Notes under the pieces: model-generated
Told to the model about the DNA's origin: nothing
Databases searched by the model: none
What the model saw: only the letters and a program-made list of their open reading frames with translations
Shown here: piece by piece, positions 831 through 15,417 of the stretch
Numbering within the stretch: position 1 is the stretch's first letter
Layout: the number at the start of each line of letters is the position of its first letter
Made by a program: the position numbers and the translations under genes
Assembly: GCA_043801165.1 (NCBI GenBank)
Contig: JAZDMG010000042.1
Coordinates: 89-64,088, forward strand
DNA: 64,000 nt
From: an archaeon
GTDB lineage: Archaea > Nanobdellota > Nanobdellia > Woesearchaeales > SM23-78
Reading direction: 5' to 3'

Positions 831-874
831 ATAGGCAAAGCGACAAGCCCAAATAAATTATTTTTTCTAATTGA

Positions 875-907
875 TTTTCCTGATTTCTAGAGACGCATTA
901 TATTAAC
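875..907. repeat. 33-bp direct repeat R1, copy 1
   Basis: ttttcctgatttctagagacgcattatattaac; one mismatch to 1357-1389. Confidence 0.9.
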
Positions 908-1015
908 AGGTTAGGTTGGATATCCCTATCAGGAGCCTGACCTTATGATTCCAAAAGATTCATATAGTACAATTGACTACATTTATGTAGCAGGGTTGAA
1001 CGCCAAGGTGAGAAG

Positions 1016-1327
1016 ATGAAATGTCCTGAATGCGGTTCTGAACTGAAGAAAGTAGAAGTCAAGGTGCACGGCGCGAAGAGCAAAGCCACAAGCTACCAAT
1101 GCCCTGGCTGCGGCTATTTCGAATTTGACCAAGGCTCCTCTGAAAAGATCCTTGGAGAATTAAGGGATCAGCCTTTGAAGATAAAGCAGAAGATAATCAA
1201 GCTTTCTCAGGATAGGCTTGGCATGTACATCAATCGGGATGTTGCAAGAAGCCTAAACCTTAAGGGAGGGGAGGAGATTTATGTATCTGTGCCTGACAAG
1301 AAGCACCTGTTGGTGAGGATAGATTGA
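1016..1327 (+). CDS. Zn-ribbon plus AbrB/MazE-like DNA-binding protein (orphan antitoxin-like)
   Basis: CPECG...CPGCG zinc knuckles; C-terminal KIIKLSQDRLGMYINRDVARSLNLKGGEEIYV matches the swapped-hairpin AbrB pattern. Confidence 0.65.
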   Translation: MKCPECGSELKKVEVKVHGAKSKATSYQCPGCGYFEFDQGSSEKILGELRDQPLKIKQKIIKLSQDRLGMYINRDVARSLNLKGGEEIYVSVPDKKHLLVRID

Positions 1328-1356
1328 AATCAGATTACTTGCGAAATAAACACATA

Positions 1357-1389
1357 TTTTCCGGATTTCTAGAGACGCATTATATTAAC
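1357..1389. repeat. 33-bp direct repeat R1, copy 2
   Basis: ttttccggatttctagagacgcattatattaac; with copy 1 it brackets the 1016-1327 gene. Confidence 0.9.
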
Positions 1390-1427
1390 TAGCTGGTGAT
1401 ATCATCCTTTGCTTTCAAAAAAAGAAA

Positions 1428-1471
1428 AGTTTTATATACCTTAGGTGTATGTTTATACACCAAAGGTGTAT
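1428..1471 (+). promoter_or_regulatory. TATA box followed by two tandem palindromic operators
   Basis: A-rich BRE and ttttatat, then atatacc-tta-ggtgtat (1434-1450) and atacacc-aaa-ggtgtat (1455-1471), 21 bp apart, just before the ATG at 1476. Confidence 0.7.
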
Positions 1472-1475
1472 TGAT

Positions 1476-2117
1476 ATGCTTACTATGAATGAAAGCAAGG
1501 TATTAAGGCTGCTTTTCGCAGCGGTTGATGAAGACTACTCAATCAATGGGGTAGCTAGGAAATGCGGCTTAGCCCCCAACGGAGCTGCTAAGATACTCAA
1601 GAAGCTCGAGAAGGAGGGCGTCCTGAGGGCAAAAAGCATAGCCAACATCAGGTCCTATAGGATAGATTTTGAAAACCAGAAGACGCCGGCAGTGCTGGAG
1701 CTGTCCATGATGGCTGAAGCGGAAGGCAGGCTCAAAAGCAGGCTTGAAGACCTGAAAGAGCTAAGAGAGACGGCAAAAGCCTGCATCGCCTTCGGCTCTT
1801 ACATCAGCCCAAACAAAGAGCCAAAAGACCTGGACCTGCTATTCATCATTGACAAAAAAGATTACAAGCAATACAAGAAAAAGACCGATAGCTTAAGGCA
1901 CATCCTGCCAGTCAAGCTCCATGACATCACACAGACAGAAGAGGACATGGAAAGCAACATCCGAAAGAAAGACAGGATAATCATCGAAGCATTAAGGGCA
2001 GGGATAATACTCTGGGGACAAAAAACAATCATCGAGCTGATGCAAAAATGCCAGAAACAAAGCTGGGCAAATGCCTCAAAGAAGGAGGAAGGGGCGGAGA
2101 ACGCCACAAAGGGCTGA
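1476..2117 (+). CDS. HTH plus minimal nucleotidyltransferase (MNT) antitoxin-like protein
   Basis: N-terminal HTH (YSINGVARKCGLAPNGAAKILKKLEKEG) and NTase motif AFGSYI...DLDLL; overlaps the downstream HEPN gene. ATG 1476 chosen because it lies downstream of the operators. Confidence 0.8.
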   Translation: MLTMNESKVLRLLFAAVDEDYSINGVARKCGLAPNGAAKILKKLEKEGVLRAKSIANIRSYRIDFENQKTPAVLELSMMAEAEGRLKSRLEDLKELRETAKACIAFGSYISPNKEPKDLDLLFIIDKKDYKQYKKKTDSLRHILPVKLHDITQTEEDMESNIRKKDRIIIEALRAGIILWGQKTIIELMQKCQKQSWANASKKEEGAENATKG

Positions 2118-2569
2118 GACAAATAAAATTCTCAGAAGAGAAAATAAACGGGCACATCAGCAAGGCAAAGCACAACTTCAAAGCCATGCTCAGCTTTCAC
2201 AGCATAGGATTCTCAGACTGGTCGGCCTCAGCAGCGTTCTATTGCCTCTACCACGGATTGCTCGCCATGATGGCAAAGGAAGGCTTTGAGTCAAGGAACC
2301 AAAGCTGCACCTTTGCCCTGATTGATGAGCTGATCACGAAAGGGAGGATCTCACTTACAAAAGAAGAGCTGGATGGTATATATGACCAGGACGCCACAGA
2401 AGATCTCGAGCATAGCAGCAAGATACTTGACCTGCGGGAGAATATGCAATATTCTGTGAAGACATCGCTTGAGGAGCAGGAATTCCAAATCCTCAGGGAA
2501 AGGACCAAGAAGCTGTTTGATAAGATAAGAAGAGAAGTTGAGAAAGAGGGTGAAATGGCCTTCCATTGA
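2048..2569 (+). CDS. HEPN domain protein (UPF0332-like), partner of the MNT
   Basis: HISKAKHN...WSASAAFYCLYHGLLA...ESRNQSCT...LRENMQY pattern; directly follows an HTH-MNT gene. Confidence 0.75.
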   Translation: MPETKLGKCLKEGGRGGERHKGLRQIKFSEEKINGHISKAKHNFKAMLSFHSIGFSDWSASAAFYCLYHGLLAMMAKEGFESRNQSCTFALIDELITKGRISLTKEELDGIYDQDATEDLEHSSKILDLRENMQYSVKTSLEEQEFQILRERTKKLFDKIRREVEKEGEMAFH

Positions 2570-2640
2570 CTTCGGTTAATATGTATGAACCTGGGTTAAC
2601 AGATTAATGGCGCTGGCCGGAAGCCCTTAAAAAGAAAAGC

Positions 2641-2680
2641 TTTATATACGCGGGGTATACATCAATATATGTGATGTATA
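2641..2680 (+). promoter_or_regulatory. TATA box and palindromic operator of the DUF2683/RelE pair
   Basis: tttatata, then tatacatca-N7-tgatgtata (2656-2680) abutting the ATG at 2682. Confidence 0.7.
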
Positions 2681-2681
2681 T

Positions 2682-2924
2682 ATGGTTCAAGCGATGATAA
2701 ACATTGATGAGAGCACAAACAGGGTCTTGAACATAGTCAAGGCCAAGTTCGGGCTTAAGGACAAGTCTGAGGCGATAAACCTAGTCGTGAGCGAGTACGA
2801 GCAGGTCTCTTTGGAGCCTGAACTTAGGCCGGAATACCTTGGAAGGCTAGAAAAGATAAAGAAACAGAAAGGTATACGATTCAAGAGCATAGATGATCTG
2901 AAAAGGCATATTGAAAATGCGTGA
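2682..2924 (+). CDS. DUF2683-family antitoxin
   Basis: MVQAMINIDESTNRVLNIVKAKFGLKDKSEAIN resembles archaeal DUF2683; its stop overlaps the toxin start. Confidence 0.7.
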   Translation: MVQAMINIDESTNRVLNIVKAKFGLKDKSEAINLVVSEYEQVSLEPELRPEYLGRLEKIKKQKGIRFKSIDDLKRHIENA

Positions 2925-3189
2925 TTTTGAAATAAAGCCTGAACTGGATGAAAAACTTGTAAAGCTTTCTAAGAGAGACAAGAAATCTTATCAGGCTGTG
3001 ATGAACAAGATCAAAGAAATCCTGGCCTGTGCTGATGTTGAGCATTACAAAAACCTAAGATATGATATGAAAGATTCGAAGCGAGCCCACATAGGCCATT
3101 TTATCCTAGTGTTCAGCTATGACGAAGCAAAAGATTTTGTCTCATTCGAAGATTACGACCACCACGATAACGTATACCTTAAGAAATGA
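2917..3189 (+). CDS. RelE/YafQ-like addiction module toxin
   Basis: About 90 aa, YKNLRYDMKDSKRAHIGHFILVF...YDHHDNVY typical of the archaeal RelE/StbE superfamily; downstream of a small antitoxin. Confidence 0.75.
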   Translation: MRDFEIKPELDEKLVKLSKRDKKSYQAVMNKIKEILACADVEHYKNLRYDMKDSKRAHIGHFILVFSYDEAKDFVSFEDYDHHDNVYLKK

Positions 3190-3229
3190 GTTCATAAGCT
3201 TTATAAACTTCTGAGATTATTTATCTTCC

Positions 3230-3574
3230 ATGGATAAGAAAATAATCTTCAGCGTCTTGTCAGGCATCTATGTGCTGTTGCTCCTCGTGGGCTCTTTCAT
3301 AGTCAAGCCTAATTCTGTGTTTCCAGATGGTGGTTTTGATTATTATGCTCATATCATCGGTTTTTTTGTGTTTGCTGTGATGTTCTTTTTCACCCTGAAG
3401 TTCTACAGCGTGAAGAGCAAGCTCTTGACAATCGCCATCGCTTCATCAGCCTTGAGCGTCATTGTTGAGCTGCTACGCATCCCTGGCAGGGGCTTCAGCA
3501 TTGTTGACTTGGCCTTTGACATCTTAGGATCATTGATAGGCTTGGTGGTAGCATGGAGCTTTTCCAAGCGATGA
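3230..3574 (+). CDS. VanZ-like membrane protein
   Basis: Four hydrophobic segments with AH..GF, VELLR.PGR.FS..DL..D..G motifs. Confidence 0.7.
   Translation: MDKKIIFSVLSGIYVLLLLVGSFIVKPNSVFPDGGFDYYAHIIGFFVFAVMFFFTLKFYSVKSKLLTIAIASSALSVIVELLRIPGRGFSIVDLAFDILGSLIGLVVAWSFSKR
3551..3574. repeat. 24-bp direct repeat R2, copy a (vanZ-like 3' end)
   Basis: gcatggagcttttccaagcgatga is identical at 5608-5631 and nearly identical to the uppP start at 7738-7760. Confidence 0.9.
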
Positions 3575-3650
3575 AGCATCAGTGATGGCGGCTCTCAAAA
3601 ACAAAAAATCTATATGATAATTTTGAGTTACCATATGGCAACGAGGAGTT

Positions 3651-3781
3651 ATGGGAAATTTCGCCGAGGTCTAATACCTCGCCCTTTAGGGCGAAATTTC
3701 TCATCCCAAAAACTCGCGATAAAGCGAGAGGCGAAAAACCTTGGGCTTTAGCCCGAGGATAGCCTCGAGCAGCGAGTTTTT
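3651..3781. mobile_element. Highly structured non-coding element, possibly an IS200/IS605-derived palindromic remnant
   Basis: Nested inverted repeats: atgggaaatttcgcc/ggcgaaatttctcat enclosing gaggt/acctc and gccctttagggc; aaaaactcgc/gcgagttttt enclosing ccttgggctttagcccgagg. The CTTTAG-loop hairpins resemble IS200/IS605 ends. No tnpA/tnpB nearby. Confidence 0.4.
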
Positions 3782-3787
3782 GTTATT

Positions 3788-3853
3788 ATGGCTTCATTGA
3801 CTGAAAAGGAAAAAGAATCATTGCTCATCCTGCTGAAAAAACTTCTTCCGTAA
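3788..3853 (+). pseudogene. Possible 5' stub of an HTH-type gene
   Basis: MASLTEKEKESLLILLKKLLP* reads like the first helix of the HTH-MNT proteins but stops after 21 codons. Confidence 0.35.
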
Positions 3854-3966
3854 CACGGATAGAATTCTTCCGCTTTTTCTCAGCCGCATTTAATAAATGG
3901 GGTGCGATTAGAATGCTTAAGCGCATTCAAAGCACTGAACATTTTTTAGCCAAAAAAACCAAAATG

Positions 3967-4009
3967 TTTATATATCACCATATACTAGTAAGTAGTATAT
4001 AGTGATATA
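3967..4009 (+). promoter_or_regulatory. TATA box overlapped by a long inverted repeat (AbiEi-type operator)
   Basis: tatatcac-c-atatacta-gtaag-tagtatat-a-gtgatata directly before the ATG at 4012. AbiEi antitoxins are known to autorepress through promoter inverted repeats. Confidence 0.75.
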
Positions 4010-4011
4010 AA

Positions 4012-4644
4012 ATGACTTTCAGGCTTTTAATCAAAAAACTGTACCTTTATGAAAACAGATACATAGACAGCACTACATTGAAAGAATGGTGCGAAAAACT
4101 AAGGCTGGGATACAACAAAGCGATAATATACCTTACCGCCAACAAATACCTTGTAAGAATACTCAAAGGCACATTCTACAAGCTAAGCCTTGAAGAAAGA
4201 AAATTCAAAAAGATAAACGTGATCCACATGGAAGCCATTATGGAAGCCCTCAAAATGAAAAAGATCAACAATTGGTATTTCGGCCTGGAAACAGCCAAGA
4301 AGCTCAACGGCCTCACTCATGAATACTACGCCACCGATTACGTTATCAACGACACCATCTTCCGGGCAAAGCCGATAAACATACTGGACCGCAAGGTGCG
4401 CTTCGTCAAGCTCAAAACTTCCCTCTTCGGCTTCGGCATAACTGAGCACAACGGCATAAAGGTGTCTGACAACGAAAAGACCCTGCTAGACACAATATAC
4501 CTCGCCAGATACGACGGCTTCTCCGATGAAGAGGTAAAAAACCGCATATCAGACATGGTCAAGCATTGCTCTAAAAAAAAGCTTTTAAGCTACGCAAAAG
4601 AATACAGTGGATCCATGAAAAGCTTTGTGGAGGGGCTCTCTTGA
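4012..4644 (+). CDS. AbiEi-like type IV TA antitoxin/transcriptional regulator
   Basis: LVRILKGTFY, YFGLETA..LNGL, VSDNEKTLLD motifs; coupled (4-nt overlap) to an AbiEii gene. Confidence 0.75.
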   Translation: MTFRLLIKKLYLYENRYIDSTTLKEWCEKLRLGYNKAIIYLTANKYLVRILKGTFYKLSLEERKFKKINVIHMEAIMEALKMKKINNWYFGLETAKKLNGLTHEYYATDYVINDTIFRAKPINILDRKVRFVKLKTSLFGFGITEHNGIKVSDNEKTLLDTIYLARYDGFSDEEVKNRISDMVKHCSKKKLLSYAKEYSGSMKSFVEGLS

Positions 4645-5549
4645 GCAAAATCATAGACCAACTAGCAGCAGACGCAGGAATAAGCAATAAAACCCTGCTG
4701 GAAAAGGATTTGCGCCTGCATATGTTGCTGCATGCGATTTCAAAAGACGAATATCTCCAGGCGAACCTTGCCTTCAAAGGAGGCACCTGCCTTATCAAAT
4801 GCTACCTCGGATACTACAGGTTCTCAGAAGACCTCGATTTCACATGGATAAAGCAGAAGGAATTTGAGAATAAGAGCCAGAAGGAAATCAGGAGAATGAT
4901 TTCAAAAGAGCTTGATATCATGCTAAAAATCATAGGTGAGATGACGCATAAGCTTGGCTTGGACTTCAGGCCTGAGAAAAACAACCACAAGTATGTCGAA
5001 TTCGGCGGAAGCAACAAATTCCTGACCTTGAAAGCATGGTATGAATCTGAAATTCTCAAAACCCCGCAATTCATCAAGATACAGGTAAACTTCCTGGAAA
5101 AGATCATTTACCCATTCAAAACCCTGGAAGCAGAGCCGATCATCAAAAAGATAAGCCGGAAAGAGTTCGAATTCCTGTTCCCAGAATATAAAGACCTGCT
5201 TGAAGCTACCAAAATAAAATGCTATGACCTCAGGGAAATCCTGGCGGAGAAAGCAAGAGCCATACTGACAAGACGAGAAATCAAGGCCAGAGACTTCATC
5301 GACATATTCATGATATTGAAAAAAGAGAACATCGGTATTGCGACGCTAAAAGACCATATCATAGAAAAAGTAAGATTCATGATGAGATACGACAAATACG
5401 TCAAGAACCTCAAAGGATTCAGGCTGAGCAAATTCCTAATGGAGGAAGAAGAGAAACTGCTCCTAAAGCCCCTAGACCCCGGATTTGAAATATTCCTGAA
5501 AGAAACTGAAGAATATATTCTAGAATTAATGGAAGAGTTAAAAAAATAA
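4641..5549 (+). CDS. AbiEii-family nucleotidyltransferase toxin
   Basis: FKGGTCLIKCYLGYYRFSEDLDF and EILAEKARAIL.R...ARDFIDI signatures; TTG start. Confidence 0.9.
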   Translation: MSKIIDQLAADAGISNKTLLEKDLRLHMLLHAISKDEYLQANLAFKGGTCLIKCYLGYYRFSEDLDFTWIKQKEFENKSQKEIRRMISKELDIMLKIIGEMTHKLGLDFRPEKNNHKYVEFGGSNKFLTLKAWYESEILKTPQFIKIQVNFLEKIIYPFKTLEAEPIIKKISRKEFEFLFPEYKDLLEATKIKCYDLREILAEKARAILTRREIKARDFIDIFMILKKENIGIATLKDHIIEKVRFMMRYDKYVKNLKGFRLSKFLMEEEEKLLLKPLDPGFEIFLKETEEYILELMEELKK

Positions 5550-5607
5550 TTATGAAGAATGAAAAAATTGGCCAGACCTGCTATCCACAAGCGACATGGT
5601 GTTGCTG

Positions 5608-5631
5608 GCATGGAGCTTTTCCAAGCGATGA
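5608..5631. repeat. 24-bp direct repeat R2, copy b
   Basis: Identical to 3551-3574. Upstream it reads VLLAWSFSKR* in the vanZ frame; downstream tcgttca echoes uppP codons. Confidence 0.9.
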
Positions 5632-5657
5632 TGCGTCGTTCATCTTATTTATATAGC

Positions 5658-5685
5658 TTTCGATTTTAATCGAAATATTTATAAA
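5658..5685 (+). promoter_or_regulatory. Palindromic operator and TATA box
   Basis: tttcgatt-tt-aatcgaaa (5658-5675), then tttataaa; the half-site atcgaaata recurs at 5701. Confidence 0.65.
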
Positions 5686-5708
5686 CTAAGGCATATCATT
5701 ATCGAAAT

Positions 5709-6299
5709 ATGAAAAAGACTGAGCAGGTATTCCGTGAGATACTGTACCAGGCGCTGGAGCATAAAAAACGGATCATGACGCAGGCAGAACTGTCTAAAGA
5801 GCTAGGATTCTCCCTTAGCACCATTAGCCTGGCGGTAAAAAAGCTTGAAAGGATGAACGCCATCAGCATAGGGCGTATGAGCTTCAAGGTGATAGACCCA
5901 AAAAAAATACTATACCTCTGGGCTTCTGAAAGAAACCTCGAAAAAGATATCATATACAAGGCGCGGGCGGATATGCCTGTGCGCGAGATCGAGAAGAGCA
6001 TGCCAGGAATAACATACGCAGCTTATTCAGCCTATAAGCTTAAGTTCAAAGAAGCAGCCGCTGATTATTCTGAAGTATACGTTTACTGCGGCGAAAATGA
6101 TTTGCCAGATATCAAGAAGCGGTTCCCTGAGAGCAACGGCCCGCCAAACATTTTCGTCCTGAAAAAAGACGAGAACATGAGCCGCTACTCAGCCACAGGA
6201 ACATTGGCGCAGGTGTTCGTCGACCTATGGAATCTAAGGCAATGGTACGCCTCAGATTTCCTGAAAGCATTAGAAGCTAAGATGGAGCTGATGGTATGA
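5709..6299 (+). CDS. Winged-helix regulator with an AbiEi-like C-terminus (type IV TA-like antitoxin)
   Basis: HTH MTQAELSKELGFSLSTISLAVKKL; AAYSAY and QVFVDLWN motifs; ATGA overlap with an NTase gene. Confidence 0.65.
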   Translation: MKKTEQVFREILYQALEHKKRIMTQAELSKELGFSLSTISLAVKKLERMNAISIGRMSFKVIDPKKILYLWASERNLEKDIIYKARADMPVREIEKSMPGITYAAYSAYKLKFKEAAADYSEVYVYCGENDLPDIKKRFPESNGPPNIFVLKKDENMSRYSATGTLAQVFVDLWNLRQWYASDFLKALEAKMELMV

Positions 6300-6904
6300 A
6301 AGAGTTCTGGAATTCCCTCCTAACAGAGAAAAGCTGGCTACTGTTACATGAGATAGTAAAGAAGTATGATTTCATACTGATAGGGGGATGGGCGGTTTAT
6401 CTGCTCACAAAACAGCAGAAATCCAAGGACATAGACATAGTGGTTGATATAAGCGAGCTTGACAAGCTAAAGAAAGAAGGATTGATAAAGAATGACCGCC
6501 TGAAGAAATATGAGCTTAAAAAAGAGGAGATAGATGTAGATATATACGTGGCTTATTATTCTGAAATAGCCATCCCCGCAGAAGAGATCAGCAAATACAT
6601 TATTAATGTTGAAGGATTCAAAATTCCGAGGCCTGAAGCAATGATAGTCCTAAAGCAAATGGCTTACACAAGCAGGGAAGCATCGGTTAAAGGCCAGAAA
6701 GACAGGATAGACATACTCTCATTGGTGTTTTTCACAGGATTCAATGCTGAGGCGTACCGGCAGATTATAGCCAAGCATAACCATCAGGGCTATCTTGCGC
6801 AGCTTAGAAAGATTATCAAAGGATTCAAGGAGTATGATGCGCTAAATATGACTCCGAGAGAACTAAAGCTGAAAAAAGAAGCAATTCTCAAAAAATTGGG
6901 ATGA
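6296..6904 (+). CDS. Nucleotidyltransferase (AbiEii-like superfamily)
   Basis: FILIGGWAV...SKDIDIVVD and K..KDRIDI motifs. Confidence 0.75.
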   Translation: MKEFWNSLLTEKSWLLLHEIVKKYDFILIGGWAVYLLTKQQKSKDIDIVVDISELDKLKKEGLIKNDRLKKYELKKEEIDVDIYVAYYSEIAIPAEEISKYIINVEGFKIPRPEAMIVLKQMAYTSREASVKGQKDRIDILSLVFFTGFNAEAYRQIIAKHNHQGYLAQLRKIIKGFKEYDALNMTPRELKLKKEAILKKLG

Positions 6905-6930
6905 CTCGAAGCGTGTTCATAAACCGAAAG

Positions 6931-6998
6931 ATATATAAATTCCTATAAATAGGAATACTTATTCCTATAAAAAGGAATGAACTCCCCTAAAAATAGGA
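6931..6998 (+). promoter_or_regulatory. TATA box with three tandem palindromic operators at a 22-bp period
   Basis: atatataa, then cctataaatagga (6942), cctataaaaagga (6964) and cctaaaaatagga (6986). Confidence 0.75.
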
Positions 6999-7006
6999 CG
7001 ATTAGC

Positions 7007-7639
7007 ATGCTGAACAAAGAATATGATATATTAAAGCCTTTTGCCGAGAGGCCATGGGAAAAGCTGACATTCAAGCAGGTGAAAAAAGCTTCGAAAAAGA
7101 AATCAGTGAGCTTTGTCTTCAAATCATTGAAGAAATCTGTAAAGGAAGGCATCTTGGTGGAAGAAAAAATCGCTAATATCATCCTCTACTCCGTCGATTT
7201 CAAATCAGGAAAAGCATTGTCCTCGTTAGGATACATCCTTGAGCACATCGGCTGGTCTAAAAAGCATATCCCTTATGATGATATGCAGGCAGCAATTGAC
7301 AAGATACCTTTCAAAAGCCACATAACTCTGATAACAGGCAGCTATGCCAAAGGGACTCAGAGGCAAGATTCTGACATCGACGTGGTCGTCATAATAGAAG
7401 ACCCCTGCGATCCAAAAAGAGTGTACGCTGAGTTGAATCTGCACGCAGAGCTAAGCATGCCTAAAATCCATCTTTATGTATTCAGGAACTCTGAATTCTT
7501 GCTGATGCTTAATAATGATAAGGCTAACTACGGAAAGGAAATAGTTAAAAACTGCCTGATATTAACCCAAGGGCAGGCATATCTAAAACTGATCGGCGAG
7601 GCAATAAAGCATGGATTTGATGATAAGCGTCTATCTTAA
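7007..7639 (+). CDS. HTH plus MNT nucleotidyltransferase
   Basis: ITGSYAKGTQRQDSDIDVVVI with an N-terminal HTH-like region. An alternative ATG at 6977 lies inside the operator. Confidence 0.8.
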   Translation: MLNKEYDILKPFAERPWEKLTFKQVKKASKKKSVSFVFKSLKKSVKEGILVEEKIANIILYSVDFKSGKALSSLGYILEHIGWSKKHIPYDDMQAAIDKIPFKSHITLITGSYAKGTQRQDSDIDVVVIIEDPCDPKRVYAELNLHAELSMPKIHLYVFRNSEFLLMLNNDKANYGKEIVKNCLILTQGQAYLKLIGEAIKHGFDDKRLS

Positions 7640-7712
7640 AAGGGCTGAAAATGAAGTCCTGATTGCTGAGAAGCTCAAAAACATTCTTATCAAACATAAA
7701 GAAAGTGATTGA
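7611..7712 (+). pseudogene. Truncated HEPN gene (N-terminal 33 codons)
   Basis: MDLMISVYLKRAENEVLIAEKLK overlaps the MNT stop as the intact HEPN at 2048 does, and resembles HEPN helix 1; it stops 26 bp before uppP. Confidence 0.65.
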
Positions 7713-7738
7713 GAAGAACAATCATTTGTGAGAATAAC

Positions 7739-8500
7739 ATGGATCTTTTCCAAGCGATAATACTAGGGATCGTTCAGGGAATAACAGAATGGCTTCCCAT
7801 ATCCAGCTCAGGCCATCTTGTGCTCTTCCAGGAGCTGTTCGGCTTTGGAGCCAACGTAGCCTTTGACGTGATGCTTCATGTCGCCACCCTTCTTGTCATT
7901 CTCATTGTCTTCTGGAAGGACATCTTGGCTATAATCAAGTCATTGTTTGCCTGGCGCTGGGATGAGCACACCAGGATGCTGCTGTTCATAGTCCTGGCCA
8001 CGATTCCGACAGCCCTGATAGGGCTGCTGTTCAAGGACTGGCTGCTAGGATTGTTCACAAATATGCTGTTATTAGGCGTTTTTTTCATCATTAATGGCAT
8101 CATCCTGCTCATGACTAGGTTTGCCAAGGAAGGCAAGGAATTGGGCTGGAAACACTCGATAATGATGGGGTTTGCCCAGGGATTGTCGATAATCCCTAGT
8201 TTGTCAAGGAGTGGCCTGACGATCTCGACAGGTATGTTCTTTGGAGTCAAGAAAGAGAACCTTGTGAAGCTGTCATTCCTCATGGCAGTGCCTGCCATCC
8301 TGGGGGCAGCGATACTTGAACTGAACCAGCTAGTCATGACTGATCTTATGCCGATGATTGCCGGAACAGTTGTTTCGCTCGTTGTTGGCTACATATCTTT
8401 ACGCTGGCTTATAAAGCTGGTAGAGAATAGCAAGTTCCATGAGTTCGGGTATTACTGCATAGCGATAGGACTTATCATATTAGCTGTTGTGATATTCTAG
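7739..8500 (+). CDS. uppP: Undecaprenyl-diphosphate phosphatase (BacA family)
   Basis: LGIVQGITEWLPISSSGH and Q.L.IIP..SRSG.TI motifs; polytopic. The ATG at 7739 lies in R2 copy c. Confidence 0.93.
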   Translation: MDLFQAIILGIVQGITEWLPISSSGHLVLFQELFGFGANVAFDVMLHVATLLVILIVFWKDILAIIKSLFAWRWDEHTRMLLFIVLATIPTALIGLLFKDWLLGLFTNMLLLGVFFIINGIILLMTRFAKEGKELGWKHSIMMGFAQGLSIIPSLSRSGLTISTGMFFGVKKENLVKLSFLMAVPAILGAAILELNQLVMTDLMPMIAGTVVSLVVGYISLRWLIKLVENSKFHEFGYYCIAIGLIILAVVIF

Positions 8501-8594
8501 AGAATTTAATCAAGCGCGCCTGCATCAAGCAGCAATCAGAATATGGCGCGGTTTATGTGAAGTTTAAAAATAAAAATAATAAAAATTTTTGAGT

Positions 8595-11549
8595 TTACCT
8601 TCTCAGCAGCAATGAAGCAATGAAGACTCCCGCCAATGCCAGCAGGAACATTCCTGTCATCATGGTGCCTGTTGAGGCTCCGTTGACAACAGCTCCTGTT
8701 ATGCTATTGGTCTTGTCAAGCACAGAGGTGACAGGGTCTGTTATATCCTCATCCGCATTCTCTGCTTTCAGCTGGATGTTGCCAGTCACTACACTGCCTT
8801 GAGTCTGTTCGACAGGATCAGATTCCTCACTCTCTGAGGGATGTGTCTCTGTCACAACAGGAGCCGGCATGACTTTGCAGCTTTGGGTCTCTGTCTTGCT
8901 TGCGCCGTTAAGGGTGCATGTCCTTGTCTGCTTCTCAGCAGCACAAACACTCCAATTTCCGCATTGCCAATTGGTGGTGGTTGTTATTGATGATCTCCCG
9001 CCGCCACCGCCTCCGCCTGAAGACGACTTATGAACAATTGGAGTGTATTGGCAGGTGCAATCCTCAAGGCATGTGTCTATCGTGTTAGGATCCTTGTCGT
9101 AGCATTCATCGTCAGAGAGGCATTGTGCACCGCACCTTTCCTTGTCACATGTGTGAGTTATTGTCTCATTTCCTGTGGTGCATCTGTCGTTATCCTCATC
9201 GCAGACCGAGACGAACTGATGCCTGAAATCCCATGTGAAATGGAAATTATCAGGGCTGTTGAAGCAGGTCTCGATTAATGATATGTTGAAACCGTTGCAG
9301 ATCTTTCCTGTTCCGCCGCACTGCCCTTCAGTGCAGACATCGTTGTCTGAGCACCAGAGACCGTCATCACAGCTTGTCCCGTTAGCCTTGTACTTTGTGT
9401 TGCCTGTGTCGATCCACTGAGTCCCGATGGTTGTGTAGGTGCAGTTGACTATCGCTCCTGCTGTGCAGGCGTAGTCCCTCTGCTCCTGTTCCTTCTGCTC
9501 TTTCTCATTGCAGACGGTGGTGTTTGACCATCTCTTGTTTCCTGTGTCATACCATCCGTCGAGCGAGTCACAGTTTAATGTGCTTCCGCCGCTGCAGGAG
9601 CAGCTTGTTGTCAGGTCGCATGTGCTGCCGAAGTGCTTGATGTTCCCGTCGCAGTAGTCTGCGCAGTCACTGTTGCCTGAGCATGTCGCTCCGCACCAGT
9701 CCTTTGTGCACGAGTAGATGAAGTTGTCAGGTGTGCATCCGCAGCTCGCGTCGCAGTTGCCGTAGGTGTCTCTTAATCCTCGCTTTGCGCCTATGCAGTT
9801 GGTGGTTGTCTGCTCGCAGTTCCCGTTGTTGTTGGTGTTCGGAAGCTCGCAGGTTTCTGTTCCTGAGATTAATCCGTCTCCGCAATAATCATTGCTGTCA
9901 TGCTTGCATGTGCAGTTGGCAAGGCAGATGTCAGTTGTATAGGCAATCTGATCGTCACAGTCAGCGTCGCTCTCGCAGTCTGCAGTGCAGTGATCTTTGC
10001 TGCATTGGTGTGATATGCTCTGATTTCCGTTGCTGCATGAATCATTCGCTTCTATGCAGGTGCTTGTGAAAGCAGACCTGAAATCCCATGTGTAATGGAT
10101 GTTGTCAGGGTTGTTGTCGCATGTCTCGATCTTGATTATATTCAATCCGGCACAGCTCACAGCATCTCCGCCGATGCACTGGCCTACGTCGTTGCAGACC
10201 TCGTTTCCGTTGCAGTAAAGGCCGTCTGAGCAGCTTGTGTTGTAAGGAGCGTATATATTGCCAGGGCATGCTGCTGCGCTGCCTGTGCAATACTCTCCAG
10301 GGTCGCATACTCCGTTGGCTGATCTGCACTCGAATGTGCTTGGCTTGAATCCGTTTGTCGGGCAGTCATTAGCTGTCCCTGTGCAGTATTCTTTTACATC
10401 GCATACTCCTGCGCTGTTCCTGCATATGTATGTGTCAGGTCTCTTGCCGTCAGCTGGGCATTCAGGGTTTGTTCCTGTGCAGTATTCTGGAACGTCGCAT
10501 GTTCCTGCGCCTGCTCTGCAAAGAGCAGTTCCAGGAGCGTACTCTTCGGTGCATACTCCTGATTGGCAGACATCGTTTGCTTCGCATGTCCCTGCTTCTG
10601 TCGCGCAGATTGTCCCGTCTGCCTTGTTCCTTGTGCTTCCGCTGTCAACCCATCTTGTTGAGGTGACAGTGTATGAGCAGCTCAATAGGCTGGCTGAGCA
10701 GGTGTAGTCTCTCTCCTCCTGTTCCTTCTGCTGCTTCTCCTTGCACAATCCGTCATCGATCCATCTGCTGTTGCCGTTATCGTACCAGCCGTCCTTTGAG
10801 TCGCAGTCCTCGACAACGGTCTCATCTGTCCAGCTGACATGGTCTTTGCATGTGGCCTGGCAGTAGAAGTCATGGAGCTGCCTGTGCTTCTTCAAGAAGC
10901 TTCCTTCGCAGAAGTTCACATAGCCATTGTAAGAATCAATGTGCCTGTTGCTGTAATCATAGATGCACGGAGAGCCTGTTCCCTCGTTGCAGGAATAATC
11001 CCTGTCCTCACATCCAGTGCTGTAGGCGTAGCAGCCGTCGTTATCGTTGCAGTGCTCTGCTTCTGAAGTTATTGACAAGACACAGGTATTGCCGTTCCAG
11101 GTGTAATGCCATACTTGCCTCACTTCGCTGTCTGAGCACATCCATGCATCAGGAGGGCAGTTGTAGATCTTTAATTTAGAGGTCTCTGTGTCTGAGTCGC
11201 AGCAGCAAGGGTCGCAGCTGGTCTCTGTGGCTGTGCACTTCACATCGAACTCCTTTGCGGAATTGAGGGCTATGGTGCCGTAATCAGCAGGCCCGACTGA
11301 TACAGGGACGTCGAATACGCTGGCAGCATTTGTCCCTGAGGCGAGGACCTTGTTGACTCCATTGCCGATCAGCTCTACCTTGTAGTTGGCTGGCCCGAGC
11401 ATAGGGTCAACTGTACACGTAAAACTTGCAGTATTCCCTGACTTTATTGTCTGGTCTCCTGACATGAAGACGAAGATAGCTGCCACCAGGCTTGCTGAAA
11501 GCAGCAAGACTGTCATTATAACCAAAACGCTCTTGTTAATTTTCATCAT
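8595..11549 (-). CDS. Cys-rich repeat surface protein (signal peptide, disintegrin-like repeats, duplicated modules, poly-Gly linker, C-terminal TM anchor)
   Basis: MMKINKSVLVIMTVLLLSASLVAA signal; CRxxxGxCDxxEYCTG repeats; two DGWYD and two TWDFR modules; G7 linker, WQCGNWSVC..QTRTC, TM helix then RR. Confidence 0.85.
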   Translation of the reverse strand: MMKINKSVLVIMTVLLLSASLVAAIFVFMSGDQTIKSGNTASFTCTVDPMLGPANYKVELIGNGVNKVLASGTNAASVFDVPVSVGPADYGTIALNSAKEFDVKCTATETSCDPCCCDSDTETSKLKIYNCPPDAWMCSDSEVRQVWHYTWNGNTCVLSITSEAEHCNDNDGCYAYSTGCEDRDYSCNEGTGSPCIYDYSNRHIDSYNGYVNFCEGSFLKKHRQLHDFYCQATCKDHVSWTDETVVEDCDSKDGWYDNGNSRWIDDGLCKEKQQKEQEERDYTCSASLLSCSYTVTSTRWVDSGSTRNKADGTICATEAGTCEANDVCQSGVCTEEYAPGTALCRAGAGTCDVPEYCTGTNPECPADGKRPDTYICRNSAGVCDVKEYCTGTANDCPTNGFKPSTFECRSANGVCDPGEYCTGSAAACPGNIYAPYNTSCSDGLYCNGNEVCNDVGQCIGGDAVSCAGLNIIKIETCDNNPDNIHYTWDFRSAFTSTCIEANDSCSNGNQSISHQCSKDHCTADCESDADCDDQIAYTTDICLANCTCKHDSNDYCGDGLISGTETCELPNTNNNGNCEQTTTNCIGAKRGLRDTYGNCDASCGCTPDNFIYSCTKDWCGATCSGNSDCADYCDGNIKHFGSTCDLTTSCSCSGGSTLNCDSLDGWYDTGNKRWSNTTVCNEKEQKEQEQRDYACTAGAIVNCTYTTIGTQWIDTGNTKYKANGTSCDDGLWCSDNDVCTEGQCGGTGKICNGFNISLIETCFNSPDNFHFTWDFRHQFVSVCDEDNDRCTTGNETITHTCDKERCGAQCLSDDECYDKDPNTIDTCLEDCTCQYTPIVHKSSSGGGGGGGRSSITTTTNWQCGNWSVCAAEKQTRTCTLNGASKTETQSCKVMPAPVVTETHPSESEESDPVEQTQGSVVTGNIQLKAENADEDITDPVTSVLDKTNSITGAVVNGASTGTMMTGMFLLALAGVFIASLLLRR
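9001..9017. repeat. 17-bp poly-Gly linker string shared by three surface-protein genes, copy 1
   Basis: ccgccaccgcctccgcc; identical at 16253-16269 and 23695-23711. Confidence 0.85.
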
Positions 11550-11575
11550 TTTTCTTTCCCCCTTGCACCCTTTTA

Positions 11576-12892
11576 TCAAAACCTGACACCAATCAGTCCG
11601 TATTTGGTTGTCCTGTTGCCGTCAAGCTTGACCACTGTCCCTGCGTATTCGAAGGACCTGTTCTGTCCAATCCTGACTCCGGCTCCGAACACCAGCTCTA
11701 TGTCTCCGCCTTTGAGCGGGACCATGAACATGGCCTGGTATCTTTGTATGAGCCCGTTGAGGCTCTTGTTGCCGATGCATTCATACGGATCCTTAATGTC
11801 AGCTCCTGTCAGCTTGTCCCTTGCGGTCTGTATGAGCTTGTGCTCGATGCCCATCCATTCGTAGCCGAACAATGCTCCAAGCCCAAACCTGGTCTTGCCT
11901 TCTCTGCCAGCGACCAAGTTGAATCCGCCTCCAAGCGCATGGGCAGTTGCTGTGCTCTCAAGGTCAGTCCTTCCTATGATTGTCTGTCCCTTGACATTGA
12001 ACTCATCATATTGTAAGTTGTTGCTTGCCATCTCTGGGAATGTCATCTCTCCGAACACTCCAAAGTAAGCCCTCAGCTTCTCGCCGAGCTTGAAGTTGAT
12101 AGGCATGAGGTCCAATCCTGCTCTCTTTCCGTCAGAGTAGACGTCCAGTAATGCGCCGCCTCTCCTCTTGATGACTTCCTTCTCGACAATCTTGTCAACA
12201 AGCACCTTCTTTTCAACTTCTCTATCAACAATCTTTTCCTTGATTACTGGATCGCAGCATTTCTCTGTGTAGACAAATGTCGGTACGCTTGCCAGCAATT
12301 TCCTGCCGTCTTCGATGGCTGGGAATGCTACGTAAAGGGTTCCATCCTTCAGGCCGTAGTTCTTGATGTTTTCGATGAATGCTGGGAACGCATGCTCTCC
12401 GCTTCCTGCTATCTGTAGCGGGTTGTGGAGCGGCTCCCCTGGCTTTCCAGTCTTATAATTGAATTCGCTTATCACCATGTCAAGAGGAAGCTGTAATCCT
12501 CCTTTCTTTATGTGGATTATCGGGCTTCCATTGTTGTCTGCCACTCCGAATGATCCTCCGCAAGGAACTATCCTTGGAGGGCTCTTCAGGTTGGCGCCCT
12601 GCATTTCCTTGACTATTGTGACAAGGTTATGATTAGAATCGTAGGTTGATATGCTGAAAGGCGGTATTGTCGCCGTATTGTCTCCCTGCGGGCTTGATAT
12701 TCCTGGCTTGTTCTGCTGTGCGTCAGGAGTTCCGGCATACCCTAATGCTGGCAGGCCAAGTCCGGCCAACCACAATGCGAATGCTGCTGCTCCGAGCCCC
12801 CATCTCTGGTTCATGCTCAATGGACTGGTTCTTTTTAGAATTGCGTTTGCCATGACGGCATTTGTGATCTCATCTGTGTTCACGACTTCCAT
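11576..12892 (-). CDS. Secreted hypothetical protein with an amphipathic beta-strand C-terminal domain
   Basis: 438 aa; hydrophobic signal-like segment at about residues 31-53; C-terminal alternating strands ending YGLIGVRF. Confidence 0.75.
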   Translation of the reverse strand: MEVVNTDEITNAVMANAILKRTSPLSMNQRWGLGAAAFALWLAGLGLPALGYAGTPDAQQNKPGISSPQGDNTATIPPFSISTYDSNHNLVTIVKEMQGANLKSPPRIVPCGGSFGVADNNGSPIIHIKKGGLQLPLDMVISEFNYKTGKPGEPLHNPLQIAGSGEHAFPAFIENIKNYGLKDGTLYVAFPAIEDGRKLLASVPTFVYTEKCCDPVIKEKIVDREVEKKVLVDKIVEKEVIKRRGGALLDVYSDGKRAGLDLMPINFKLGEKLRAYFGVFGEMTFPEMASNNLQYDEFNVKGQTIIGRTDLESTATAHALGGGFNLVAGREGKTRFGLGALFGYEWMGIEHKLIQTARDKLTGADIKDPYECIGNKSLNGLIQRYQAMFMVPLKGGDIELVFGAGVRIGQNRSFEYAGTVVKLDGNRTTKYGLIGVRF

Positions 12893-13365
12893 AATAGATC
12901 CCCCCGAATCGTTTGTTGGTAATTAGCTCTAGGCTATATAATTTACTCTTTATTTCCTACGGAGAATCCTCACAGGATTTATAAAGCTTTTGCTTTTGTT
13001 CTCTTTGTCCAGTGATAACTAATTTATCCAGTAACCCGCTAGTGACTGATATCCTGCAGTGTTTTGTTATAGAAGATACTGTTGTAGCCTTAACTGATTC
13101 CGTTGATCCAAAACAGTACATTAATAAGATGAGGCAAATAGATGGGCAATTAGCCCAAGGGTGGGTACAAATTGTACATACCCTTATGATGAAAGAGAAT
13201 ATTCTGACCTGTTTATAGAAAAAATCATTGCTAAACGAACCGAAAAAATTCCGTTTTTTCTTGCGGTGAGTTTATTAAGCACTTCTGATGCTAGGGATCA
13301 GTCAATGATGCGGCCTGCAGCGAATCATGACTGCCAAGAACCGATGCAATTGTAAGAACCGAAAT

Positions 13366-13397
13366 ATTTAAATAGTAAGGTAAACTAACTTACCTTA
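13366..13397 (+). promoter_or_regulatory. TATA box and palindromic operator
   Basis: atttaaata, then taaggtaa-actaac-ttacctta (13376-13397) running into the ATG. Confidence 0.7.
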
Positions 13398-13987
13398 TGG
13401 TAAGTTTTTATACCTACTTGGGATTATACCTGAATGACCTAAGAAAGAAAGTCAGCTTAAGCGAATTTGAAAAGCACTTCAAAACACCGCACCAAACCAT
13501 AAAAAAACACTTGGCTGTCCTTGTCAGTTCAAGAATACTGCTGGAAGAAAAAAAAGCGCGGTTCAGGTTTTATAGCCTAAACCTGAAAAACCCTCTGCTC
13601 GTTGAGTACCTGTCCATTTGCGAAAAAGAGAGGCTATTTGCGCTCCTTGAAAAAAGCACACTGATTAACAGGCTATACCAGCTGGCATCAGGCAGCCTGA
13701 AAAACGCGCTGATATTCGGCTCAGCAACAACAAGTAAAGATTACGATGATATTGATTTGCTCGCATTAACGAAAGATGGCCGGCTAAAAGCAGAGCTAAA
13801 GCAGTTCGAGAATACCTATGGTAAAAAGGTGCACTTGATACAGACAGGTGAAAAAGATCTCACTCCTGCTTTCCTTGAGGAGATAAAGCAAAAGCACATA
13901 ATCCTGAATAACCACGACTACATAATTAGGGTGATCTACAAAAATGAGCTTGGACTGGTGCAGGAAACAAGGTATGAAGCTGATTGA
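13397..13987 (+). CDS. ArsR-like HTH plus MNT nucleotidyltransferase
   Basis: HTH PHQTIKKHLAVLVSSRIL; NTase motif LIFGSATTSKDYDDIDLLAL. Confidence 0.8.
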   Translation: MVSFYTYLGLYLNDLRKKVSLSEFEKHFKTPHQTIKKHLAVLVSSRILLEEKKARFRFYSLNLKNPLLVEYLSICEKERLFALLEKSTLINRLYQLASGSLKNALIFGSATTSKDYDDIDLLALTKDGRLKAELKQFENTYGKKVHLIQTGEKDLTPAFLEEIKQKHIILNNHDYIIRVIYKNELGLVQETRYEAD

Positions 13988-14093
13988 GCCAAACGATAAT
14001 CTGGCAGAAGAATATTTCCAAAACGCCGAAGCTACATTAAGAGTCACAAGCCTCATAAAGGATTCTGGCTCCAACATCGCAACATTCGCCTAA
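13944..14093 (+). pseudogene. Truncated HEPN gene (49 codons)
   Basis: MSLDWCRKQGMKLIEPNDNLAEEYFQNAEATL overlaps the MNT stop and resembles a HEPN N-terminus; it ends at TAA 14091-14093, close to the next promoter. Confidence 0.65.
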
Positions 14094-14149
14094 TGCATAA
14101 CCATATAAACGAAAAGTTTATATATCTGTTAAGATGGATAACCAGGTTT

Positions 14150-14770
14150 ATGATGGTTGATGATGACTTGCTAAGGCGCCTGGAAGGCCTGCACACGATA
14201 GAGACCTTAGCCAAAGCCCTGGGGATGGGCAGGCAGAGCGCCATAAACTTTGCCAGCAGGCTAAGAAAGCAGGGATACCTGTCAAGCAGCGGGGGAGGAA
14301 AACAGCCAAGGTTCTATAAAATAACTGCCCGGAAGCAGAGAGAAAGAGTCCCTGGCATGTTTGACATACTGAACAAGCATTCTCCCCAGAAGCTCAGCCC
14401 CTGGTATGACCACCAGGTGCATGGGCGCTACGGAGTAGAGGAAGCATTGGTAGACGCTGTCAAGACAGGCAGTTTTCGGGCAATACTTGCAAGCCTGAGC
14501 CTATTCAACCACGTAAAGGATTGGCCCAGGCTTCACAGGCTCGCGGATGATAATGGCTGCTGGCAGAAGGTCGGCGCTTTGTACGATGCCGCAAGAATGC
14601 ACCTGCGAGTCAAGAGAATGCCGGAAAGATATCGGAACATATCAGGAAAAGAATATGAATGGGTTAAGCTTACATCGCTAGAAAACAGAGATAATTTTTC
14701 TGACGTGCAGCAGAAATGGCATGTCTACATACCTTTCAATGAAAAAGATTTGAAGTCGTGGAATGAATGA
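14150..14770 (+). CDS. Winged-helix antitoxin-like regulator
   Basis: TIETLAKALGMGRQSAINFASRLRKQG HTH; TATA aagtttatata about 30 bp upstream of ATG 14150; ATGA overlap with an NTase gene. Confidence 0.65.
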   Translation: MMVDDDLLRRLEGLHTIETLAKALGMGRQSAINFASRLRKQGYLSSSGGGKQPRFYKITARKQRERVPGMFDILNKHSPQKLSPWYDHQVHGRYGVEEALVDAVKTGSFRAILASLSLFNHVKDWPRLHRLADDNGCWQKVGALYDAARMHLRVKRMPERYRNISGKEYEWVKLTSLENRDNFSDVQQKWHVYIPFNEKDLKSWNE

Positions 14771-15417
14771 TAACTCACAATGATCAGAAACGCCTTTTCG
14801 AGCTCATAGCTGATAAGCTAACAATAGATATTGAGTGCTTTGCTTTCGGCGGAACAGCCATGATGTTCTACGGATACAAGGAAGAGACAAAAGACATAGA
14901 CCTATTGTTCGAGAAAGAGGAAGACCGAAAAGAGTTCATACGCGCCATCGAAGTTCTAGGCTTTGAAAAAAGCGACCCAATTAAAATATACATACCTGAG
15001 AAGCTCCGGGATCCGCACAGGCCAATGATGTTTAAAAGAGGAGATGTCAGGCTTGACCTGTTTGTGCATAAGATATTCCGCACACAAATAAGCCCAGTAA
15101 TGAAGGAAGACCTTTATGCTCTGTCAGAATTTAGAGAAAAAAATACTCTGAAGATAAAAGTTCTGAGGACTGAGCACATAGTATTGCTAAAAGCCATAAC
15201 TGAACGGGATAAGGACTTGGAGGACATAATAACCATTATTAAAAAAGAAAAAAACTTTAACTGGGAATACCTGATAAACGAAGCGGCCTGGCAGCACTCG
15301 CACGGTGACAGCTGGGCGCTTCATGACCTGGAAAAGACGATGCAGGAATTAAAGAAGTATTTCTTCATCGAGGAAAAGCATTTCAAGAGGCTATACGCTG
15401 CGTTGAAAAATAAGTGA
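14767..15417 (+). CDS. Nucleotidyltransferase (DUF6036/AbiEii-like)
   Basis: AFGGTAMMFYGYKEETKDIDLL and LLKAITERDKDLEDI motifs. Confidence 0.75.
   Translation: MITHNDQKRLFELIADKLTIDIECFAFGGTAMMFYGYKEETKDIDLLFEKEEDRKEFIRAIEVLGFEKSDPIKIYIPEKLRDPHRPMMFKRGDVRLDLFVHKIFRTQISPVMKEDLYALSEFREKNTLKIKVLRTEHIVLLKAITERDKDLEDIITIIKKEKNFNWEYLINEAAWQHSHGDSWALHDLEKTMQELKKYFFIEEKHFKRLYAALKNK

Follow-up and report, generated by a model that had tools for sequence, protein, structure and literature searches.

A variable slot for toxin–antitoxin and defence modules between vanZ and uppP in a DPANN archaeon

The archaeal contig JAZDMG010000042.1, analysed here as a window of 64,000 nucleotides (nt) that takes in nearly the whole of the 64.2-kb contig, carries on the plus strand at 875-15417 an array of seven two-gene modules and one orphan gene, as read from the open reading frames (ORFs). 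We conclude that this array probably forms a single variable hotspot for toxin–antitoxin (TA) and defence modules, at which units come and go, change order and pass from species to species with no cassette-borne integrase. Hidden Markov model (HMM) searches resolve the modules into three in which a winged helix-turn-helix (wHTH) domain is joined to a minimal nucleotidyltransferase (MNT), with or without a HEPN partner, one DUF2683/YafQ pair, one AbiEi/AbiEii pair and two pairs of a wHTH protein with a DUF6036-type nucleotidyltransferase (NTase). Two minus-strand surface-protein genes (8595-12892) divide the array into two islets, and the gene upstream of the array is also that of a surface protein. 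Comparison with related loci shows repeated insertion at one slot, between vanZ and uppP, with target duplication, reordering at the duplicated core and transfer between species. Throughout the text the genome studied here (1.44 Mb in 48 contigs) is called G000, R is a relative found on lake-water metagenome contigs, S is a sediment metagenome contig and G001 to G040 are related genomes. The closest homologs of G000 proteins occur in metagenome-assembled genomes labelled Nanoarchaeota or Woesearchaeota, which places it among the DPANN archaea.

The vanZ-uppP slot and its relatives

In G001, vanZ and uppP overlap by exactly 22 nt (ATGGAAATTTTCCAAGCAATAA), and this single copy of the junction sequence, J, marks the empty site. 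In G000 J is present three times as a 38-nt repeat (3543-3580, 5600-5637 and 7729-7766) with a 22-nt core, occurs nowhere else in the genome and reaches 87% identity over the 38 nt between its first two copies, J1 and J2. The core, ATGGAGCTTTTCCAAGCGATGA, doubles as the final codons and stop of vanZ and as the first codons of uppP. The order across the G000 slot is vanZ, J, an element resembling a miniature inverted-repeat transposable element (MITE) and AbiE, J, wHTH_a/NT_a, MNT2 with a decayed HEPN2, J and uppP. G002 has one MNT/HEPN module between two J copies that bear its own version of the sequence, and G008 has one MNT/HEPN module before uppP on a contig that stops short of vanZ. In S, vanZ (88% nt identical to G000) is followed by 48 nt, MNT2 with an intact HEPN2, and uppP (91%), the 48 nt corresponding to 3346 nt (3575-6920) in G000. 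These loci show the slot empty in G001, with a single module in each of G002, G008 and S, and with three here; in G012 a 112-nt spacer separates the two genes, and in G010 a 610-nt insert with antisense ORFs does so. Orthology of the G002 and G008 module with MNT2 was considered and rejected, the identity being 23% and the module lying nearer MNT1/HEPN1 (29% and 38%). The flanks are themselves patchy: in G000 and the 40 relatives searched, uppP was found in 14 of 41 genomes and vanZ in 11. Related-loci searches with AbiEii and with a 916-amino-acid (aa) housekeeping protein returned nothing, and exact look-up of UppP gave no match.

R and S are the two closer relatives, and in R the slot runs vanZ, J, MNT2/HEPN2, J, wHTH_a/NT_a, a candidate defence ATPase of AAA_14-DUF4143 type (PDC-S01), J and uppP. 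MNT2 and wHTH_a/NT_a therefore stand in opposite order in the two genomes, MNT2 lying directly after vanZ in R. To the left of the slot R carries the Zn-ribbon gene (of whose ortholog the 3' end was found), an 87-aa/ParE-like module, MNT1/HEPN1, DUF2683/YafQ and vanZ; to the right, uppP is followed by another MNT/HEPN and another wHTH/DUF6036 module, which are not orthologous to those of the second G000 islet (24-32% identity), and by a Cys-rich gene. Because R has this counterpart of the second islet directly after uppP, the two G000 islets appear to form one hotspot region. The Cys-rich surface gene is split into ORFs of 770 and 303 aa in R (L033:6353-10912; G000 8595-12892), and the TA islet lies between uppP and the Cys-rich gene in R and beyond a 438-aa gene in G000, so that islet and surface-protein block have traded places. 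A search of the genus with the 438-aa protein for an empty site of the second islet gave one distant, uninformative match.

The edges of the exchanged segments are sharp. The stop of HEPN2 abuts the J core in both genomes (J2 in R, J3 in G000), and in each a J core also adjoins the promoter of wHTH_a. Blocks of homology between G000 and R start 8-30 nt ahead of the TATA box (MNT1, MNT2) and end at the stop codon (NT_a). The sequence-only reading of this DNA had proposed that modules move as promoter-to-stop units, and block edges at promoter and stop together with breakpoints at J bear it out; module order and content, whose fixity across relatives would have spoken against that proposal, both differ among G001, G002, G008, S, R and G000.

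The modules are also less diverged between G000 and R than the backbone is. Six module genes share 85-94% aa identity, with differences at 0.21-0.35 of four-fold degenerate sites (0.23 for MNT2, wHTH_a and NT_a pooled), and the backbone genes Cbf5 (72% aa identity), uppP (77%) and vanZ (50%) differ at 0.43, 0.58 and 0.64 of such sites, respectively, or 0.52 when pooled. The modules therefore have a more recent shared ancestor than the host chromosomes and have been exchanged horizontally. The R vanZ, about 50% identical in amino acids (L031:2114-2464), sits beside a YafQ gene at 93%; DNA identity falls from 84% to unalignable at about 3300, inside vanZ, which points to a recombination breakpoint within the gene. 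AbiE is absent from R and from S. The AbiE unit (3869-5543) recurs at 93% identity, with unlike flanks, on a separate 1.8-kb contig in R's lake metagenome, and a 66% copy in G005 lies between ATPase genes, bracketed by a 17-19-nt direct repeat of its own, TGCCCTGTTGA(C/T)TGT(T)AG (L028:611-629 and 2245-2264), which is unrelated to J or to DR_A, the repeat described next.

DR_A brackets the orphan gene and is found only at this locus in G000. In R the extra 87-aa/ParE-like module lies between two diverged DR_A copies, at a place where G000 has one copy. We retain as evidence only the 97% pair in G000 and this orthologous duplication in R. We considered whether DR_A might be a recombination motif dedicated to cassette boundaries and rejected this, as it reads as an oligo-T tract and a TATA box: matches to a loose consensus lie also ahead of AbiE, on contig C31 beside a DUF2683 paralog and on contig C17, and with up to two mismatches the consensus is found some 25 nt in front of ordinary genes of relatives, while a stricter pattern has no match in the genome contigs. 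A motif, TCCG-N-TTTTTC-N6-GCATT(A/T)(A/T)AT(A/T)AA, stands 90-140 nt ahead of the start codon of several cassettes (874-907, 1356-1389 and 3864-3897; L038:128-155 and 984-1011). At looser stringency it turns up before ordinary genes as well, in 7 of 15 congeners (8 matches, against 0 for a reversed control) and is probably an oligo-T terminator plus TATA box rather than a dedicated recombination site.

Modules, operators and decay

The seven plus-strand modules and the orphan gene of the sequence-only reading are all present at their coordinates and HMM-backed (Table 1). Six modules carry an NTase, as had been claimed, the motif G[GS]-x(9-13)-D-x-D being legible in all six translations. Three modules had been described as HTH-MNT/HEPN; their MNTs hold up, with a full-length HEPN in module 1 and remnants of 34 and 49 aa in the others. 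Of the supposed Zn-ribbon/AbrB orphan, the Zn ribbon is clear and the AbrB/MazE half is weak (MazE_antitoxin, E 0.05).

Table 1. Features of the array and of the vanZ-uppP slot in G000. BRE, TFB recognition element; percentages are identities.
Feature	Position	Strand	Remarks
DR_A copy 1	874..907	+	34 nt; 44 nt past stop of upstream surface-protein gene
Orphan Zn-ribbon gene, AbrB/MazE-like C-terminal half	1016..1327	+	Zn-ribbon HMM matches; between DR_A copies
DR_A copy 2	1356..1389	+	97% identical to copy 1; brackets orphan gene with copy 1
BRE/TATA and two tandem palindromic operators, module 1	1419..1471	+	
wHTH-MNT1 (putative antitoxin/repressor)	1476..2117	+	PDC-M05A 2e-13, Polbeta 4e-6, HTH_24; 85% aa to R
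HEPN1	2048..2569	+	PF05168 1e-5; sole full-length HEPN partner
BRE/TATA and palindromic operator, module 2	2629..2680	+	
DUF2683 antitoxin-like gene	2682..2924	+	24.6 bits, below cut-off 27; 94% aa to R
YafQ/RelE-like toxin gene	2911..3189	+	TIGR00053 4e-14, 52.9 bits, below cut-off 87; 93% to R
vanZ-like membrane protein gene, left hotspot flank	3230..3574	+	PF04892
Junction copy J1, ATGGAGCTTTTCCAAGCGATGA, vanZ stop region	3553..3574	+	equals ancestral vanZ/uppP overlap
MITE-like element, nested hairpins with CTTTAG loops	3649..3786	+	about 140 nt; fold z = -4.8
BRE/TATA and 17-nt-arm palindromic operator, AbiE	3955..4009	+	
AbiEi	4012..4644	+	PADLOC 1.9e-45; overlaps AbiEii by 4 nt
AbiEii	4641..5549	+	PADLOC 3.3e-61; Pfam PF08843 2e-29, 103 bits against cut-off 22.5
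Junction copy J2, needed by no gene	5610..5631	+	joint of J with wHTH_a promoter same in R
TATA boxes and palindromic operator, wHTH_a/NT_a	5648..5685	+	kept in R
wHTH_a	5709..6299	+	partner of NT_a
NT_a, DUF6036-family NTase	6296..6904	+	homologs number more than 1270 and bear the name Nanoarchaeota/Woesearchaeota DUF6036 NTase
TATA box and two tandem palindromic operators, MNT2	6930..6978	+	
wHTH-MNT2	6977..7639	+	Polbeta/NTP_transf_2 1e-7, MntA 8e-7, PDC-M05A 1e-9
HEPN2 remnant, 34 aa, in frame	7611..7715	+	73% to N-terminus of R's intact 164-aa HEPN
uppP/bacA undecaprenyl-diphosphatase gene, right hotspot flank	7739..8500	+	PF02673 1.5e-75
Junction copy J3, uppP start, ATGGATCTTTTCCAAGCGATAA	7739..7760	+	
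BRE/TATA and palindromic operator, MNT3	13357..13397	+	
wHTH-MNT3	13397..13987	+	PDC-M05A 7e-10; GS...DIDLL motif
HEPN3 N-terminal stump, 49 aa	13944..14093	+	alignable to HEPN N-termini (G008, E 0.003)
wHTH_b	14150..14770	+	partner of NT_b
NT_b, DUF6036-like NTase	14767..15417	+	Pfam DUF6036 1.5e-4, weak

All seven modules have a BRE/TATA-like box at the start and a palindrome after it. The palindromes that had been noted at 1434, 2656, 3971, 5658, 6942 and 13376 are all real, and the claim that six of the seven modules start with TATA box and operator holds for those six; the seventh has a TATA box too (about 14112-14123). When the best palindrome in the window from -70 to +5 of every gene was scored, a score of at least 8 was reached by all seven module first genes and by 3.2% of the 1243 other G000 genes (binomial p <1e-8), an association far beyond chance. 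The operators persist in R, where nt identity of the backbone is down to about 74%: that of module 1 is kept there with one symmetric double change that preserves the dyad, and that of MNT2 has conserved arms and a diverged spacer. The AbiE palindrome (3971-4009) sits between TATA box and ATG, and its outer arms are kept in the G005 copy. Spacers between modules measure 40-160 nt and are occupied by the next promoter; that before AbiE measures 437 nt and contains the MITE-like element. Non-coding stretches of 430-500 nt with short ORF fragments lie upstream of AbiE and of MNT3. The common orientation of the modules is only local, the wHTH-MNT matches of the whole genome lying 10 on the plus and 9 on the minus strand.

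Module 1 has the HEPN-MNT (type VII, PDC-M05) layout of a minimal NTase adjoining a HEPN gene; MNT2 and MNT3 keep the MNT only, and PADLOC assigns all three wHTH-MNT proteins to PDC-M05A. What relatives in this HEPN family have in common is H-E-x-T and R-E-x-F-x-Y; no Rx4-6H motif stands out clearly. At about residue 86 HEPN1 has Gln in G000 and R where five relatives have His (HECT, HRKT or HEAT), and since the family His is replaced HEPN1 may be catalytically impaired. MNT2 is 91% identical in amino acids to its R counterpart and starts perhaps at 7007, as called there. Its partner HEPN2 has suffered a 363-nt internal deletion relative to R and S, both of which have the gene intact, and the HEPN3 stump stops where the next module begins (TATA 14112-14123). 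With HEPN2 and HEPN3 both truncated in G000, the modules appear to decay toxin-first, leaving orphan wHTH-MNT genes.

The AbiE module has the gene order of type IV TA systems, the wHTH protein AbiEi followed by the DUF1814 NTase AbiEii. NT_a scores 18.8 bits against PF19502 (cut-off 23.6), and many of its homologs at 55-66% identity carry PF19502. An AlphaFold2 model (pLDDT 92.9) most resembles the toxins JHP933 and MenT1 (TM 0.5-0.58), with ANT(2'') and LnuA scoring similarly; hhalign detected no relationship between NT_a and AbiEii. A wHTH partner accompanies NT_a homologs at all three other loci inspected, and NT_b matches the NT_a family profile across 112 columns. An AAA_14/DUF4143 ATPase (PADLOC PDC-S01, 9e-111) trails a wHTH/DUF6036-NTase pair in two unrelated contexts (L030:2895-5521, L040:5332-8027), and the three genes may form a recurrent association. 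DUF2683 and YafQ are kept as a pair in R, and a paralogous pair lies on G000 contig C31.

The MITE-like element looks like a mobile one, to judge from its copies: 89% identical at C10:6051-6187 and, partially, 84% at C31:22620-22687, with compensatory changes that keep the stems. In R a 144-nt version (L031:892-1042) is inserted in reverse orientation and interrupts HEPN1. The element has no Rfam match, also in an E-value search of 3500-4050. Word depth over it was high in one sediment run.

How modules may be gained and exchanged

The array had been called integron-like, which fits its layout and fails for integrase, attC sites and shared promoter. Archaeal integrons are recognised by IntI and/or attC clusters (PMC9668308); we looked for IntI next to the array, for at least two attC sites within 4 kb with R''/R' cores, and for a common Pc promoter. 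The window holds no PF00589 tyrosine recombinase, and a whole-genome search gave three matches, two on contig C37 and one on C23, that are Xer-like in appearance. Inverted-repeat scans found no recurring attC-like imperfect palindromes (55-140 nt) after stop codons, the best inverted repeats in the array being the operators and the MITE-like element; nor are the cassettes promoterless, every module having BRE/TATA and operator. Because there is no integrase, no attC-like site and a separate promoter for each cassette, the array is, as far as its sequence tells, not an integron or a cluster of attC sites lacking integron-integrases (CALIN) under archaeal criteria. A genuine integron or CALIN, with attC-flanked cassettes captured by IntI, would account for tandem, co-directional, small and TA-rich cassettes; attC clusters have been reported in Nanoarchaeota (PMC9668308), and the array lies near the contig's left end, upstream of which an intI is possible. 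With a surface-protein gene rather than an integrase upstream of the array, no PF00589 match in the window, and spacers filled by the next promoter rather than by recurring palindromes, we find this origin hardly credible. The window also gave no tRNA in a tRNA scan and no Rfam match at gathering threshold, which leaves neither a tRNA-type att site nor a known RNA family for the structured element.

In the reading that we prefer, a module would be a unit of BRE/TATA box, palindromic operator, DNA-binding partner and effector that ends at a stop codon. The DNA-binding partner would be a wHTH protein, a wHTH fused to MNT, or DUF2683, and the effector a HEPN RNase, an AbiEii/DUF6036-type (MenT-like) NTase or a YafQ/RelE-type mRNA interferase. 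By analogy with AbiE, HepT-MntA and type II systems, repression of the module promoter through the palindrome most likely falls to the wHTH or DUF2683 protein, which would also neutralise the effector. Insertion is accompanied by local target duplication, as shown by J, of which there is one copy in one species, two in others and three here, and we infer that the duplicated copies act as short recombination sites for shuffling units and swapping in those of other strains; toxin partners would decay afterwards, leaving MNT orphans. The most likely route combines recombinase-independent insertion with long target duplication and short-homology recombination. What we find at the insertions is a J that is single in G001, and a DR_A that is single in G000 against two around the insert in R. 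Set beside a duplication length of more than 30 bp, the J core measures 22 nt and J1-J2 38 nt at 87%, and DR_A 34 nt at 97%. The inserts contain no transposase, integrase or other mobile-element gene, their only extra being the non-coding MITE-like repeat.

Several points weigh against this reading. We saw neither excised or circular products nor polymorphism within a population, leaving current activity unproven, and no public run contained G000 at near identity (best word share 0.13). The J core, 22 nt or 38 nt with flanks at 87%, lies at or below the 30-bp criterion for long target duplication. The three tyrosine recombinases elsewhere in the genome might act in trans. There is no J between NT_a and MNT2 in G000, and simple excision and re-integration at J would therefore need a further deletion to give the observed order. 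The backbone baseline consists of three genes only, two of them encoding membrane proteins, and the YafQ, DUF2683, DUF6036 and MNT3 Polbeta HMM matches fall below curated cut-offs.

The recombinases lead to a rival in which J, and possibly DR_A, is an att-type site for a trans-acting recombinase encoded on another contig, a plasmid or a virus; modules would leave as circles with one J and re-integrate at J, as an analogue of an integron. Breakpoints that fall exactly at the J core would follow from it, as would the single orientation of slot modules in G000, R, G002 and S, and it would explain a third J copy that no gene needs in G000 and R and for which selection for intact vanZ and uppP is insufficient. 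Against this stand a J that is found nowhere else in the genome and is simply a gene overlap with a 4-bp internal dyad only, a G010 insert in the opposite orientation, and other insertions that duplicate unrelated sequences (DR_A, the G005 AbiE repeat), unlike the work of a single site-specific enzyme; the recombinases themselves are ordinary Xer-type in look and unlinked to the array. We regard this, the main rival, as rather unlikely. It is more improbable still that the modules are remains of at least one larger integrated element (plasmid, virus or island) which an integrase of its own had brought in at vanZ/uppP, and of which decay has spared only the addictive TA genes. Such genes typically outlast the mobile elements that carried them, integration by an integrase leaves direct repeats of a gene end as its footprint, and the long non-coding stretches with ORF fragments before AbiE and MNT3 could be debris of this kind. 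The inserts are, however, single modules of 0.6-2 kb, the homology blocks shared with relatives are likewise single modules with sharp promoter-to-stop edges, and no remnant of an integrase, replication or structural gene was found at the slot in the six genomes compared.

Nucleotidyltransferase bias and known systems

The genomes of DPANN archaea are tiny and poor in CRISPR and restriction-modification (RM) systems, and to our knowledge the manner in which they acquire and turn over AbiE and candidate NTase/HEPN systems has not been described. The locus offers, at a single slot, a natural series of states: an empty site, a site with one cassette and sites with three, which come in two orders. 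Its sharp breakpoints, and modules younger than the backbone, imply that TA/defence operons move between species without a linked integrase, and the mechanism is testable here, with J and DR_A usable as recombination substrates. More tentatively, DPANN archaea may have a cassette economy, integrase-free or driven by resident Xer recombinases, in which self-repressing TA/defence operons insert with 20-40-nt target duplication at gene ends or overlaps and the junctions become portable recombination sites. If this is true, modules would stack, reorder and pass between species as a functional integron analogue without IntI or attC, and such an economy would be a main route that renews the defence repertoire of reduced DPANN genomes.

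The preponderance of NTases had been taken as a possible mark of a DPANN-specific island type. As a novelty this does not survive: G000 has 19 Polbeta-type MNT matches on many contigs and both strands, several of them clustered, with the weaker-scoring MNT1 and MNT3 in addition, and a 2026 survey already found AbiE and phage defence candidates (PDCs) to be enriched in DPANN and PDC-M05 (NTase plus HEPN) to be mostly archaeal (PMC12988326). Given this genome-wide abundance and the published enrichment, the bias is a known lineage trait. Toxin decay with retention of orphan wHTH-MNT genes, which the locus shows to be the common fate of such modules, may explain the 19 matches.

As to their parts, the modules share with AbiE/MenAT, HepT-MntA and RelE/YafQ TA systems the pairing of domains, the position of the antitoxin or DNA-binding gene in front and overlaps of 4-70 nt, and with autoregulated AbiE the promoter palindromes. 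They differ from HepT-MntA in an MNT fused to an N-terminal wHTH (PDC-M05A type), in the destruction of two of three HEPNs and in a HEPN pattern of H-E-x-T plus R-E-x-F-x-Y with no clear Rx4-6H, and from AbiE in DUF6036 NTases much shorter than AbiEii.

As to arrangement, bacterial defence islands and integration hotspots are flanked by conserved core genes. Here, too, two core genes flank variable cargo of defence genes, established or candidate (AbiE, PDC-M05, PDC-S01), but in contrast to defence islands (a concept cited in PMC12988326) the scale is 0-4 kb, there is no mobile-element backbone and the slot lies inside a 22-nt gene overlap. Integrons and CALINs (Ghaly et al. 2022, PMC9668308) likewise contain small co-directional cassettes, many of them TA, with variable content and a repeat between some; the present array has no IntI, attI or attC, its cassettes have their own promoter and operator, and its repeat is a duplicated gene overlap rather than a folded site. 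With cis-mobilizable elements (CIMEs) and tandem accretion at gene 3' ends or tRNA genes it shares att-like repeats that delimit stacked integrase-less segments, but no donor element with matching att and integrase is known and the segments are single operons.

The closest precedent is the insertion with long target duplication of RM gene complexes, which Nobusato and colleagues reportedly described in 2000. Such RM insertions were later surveyed in bacteria, with no archaeal case in the survey (Furuta, Abe & Kobayashi 2010, PMC2853133). In both settings a small selfish or addictive unit occupies a site whose empty form is seen in a related genome, a unique local sequence that often overlaps a gene 3' end is duplicated around the insert, and the insert lacks transposase and integrase. 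What differs here is the TA/abortive-infection cargo, the DPANN host, the shortness of the duplication (22-38 nt) and the reuse of the site, whose copies then serve as reordering breakpoints. What is new is therefore an archaeal, integrase-less and multi-cassette form of the TA/defence hotspot and of insertion with long target duplication.

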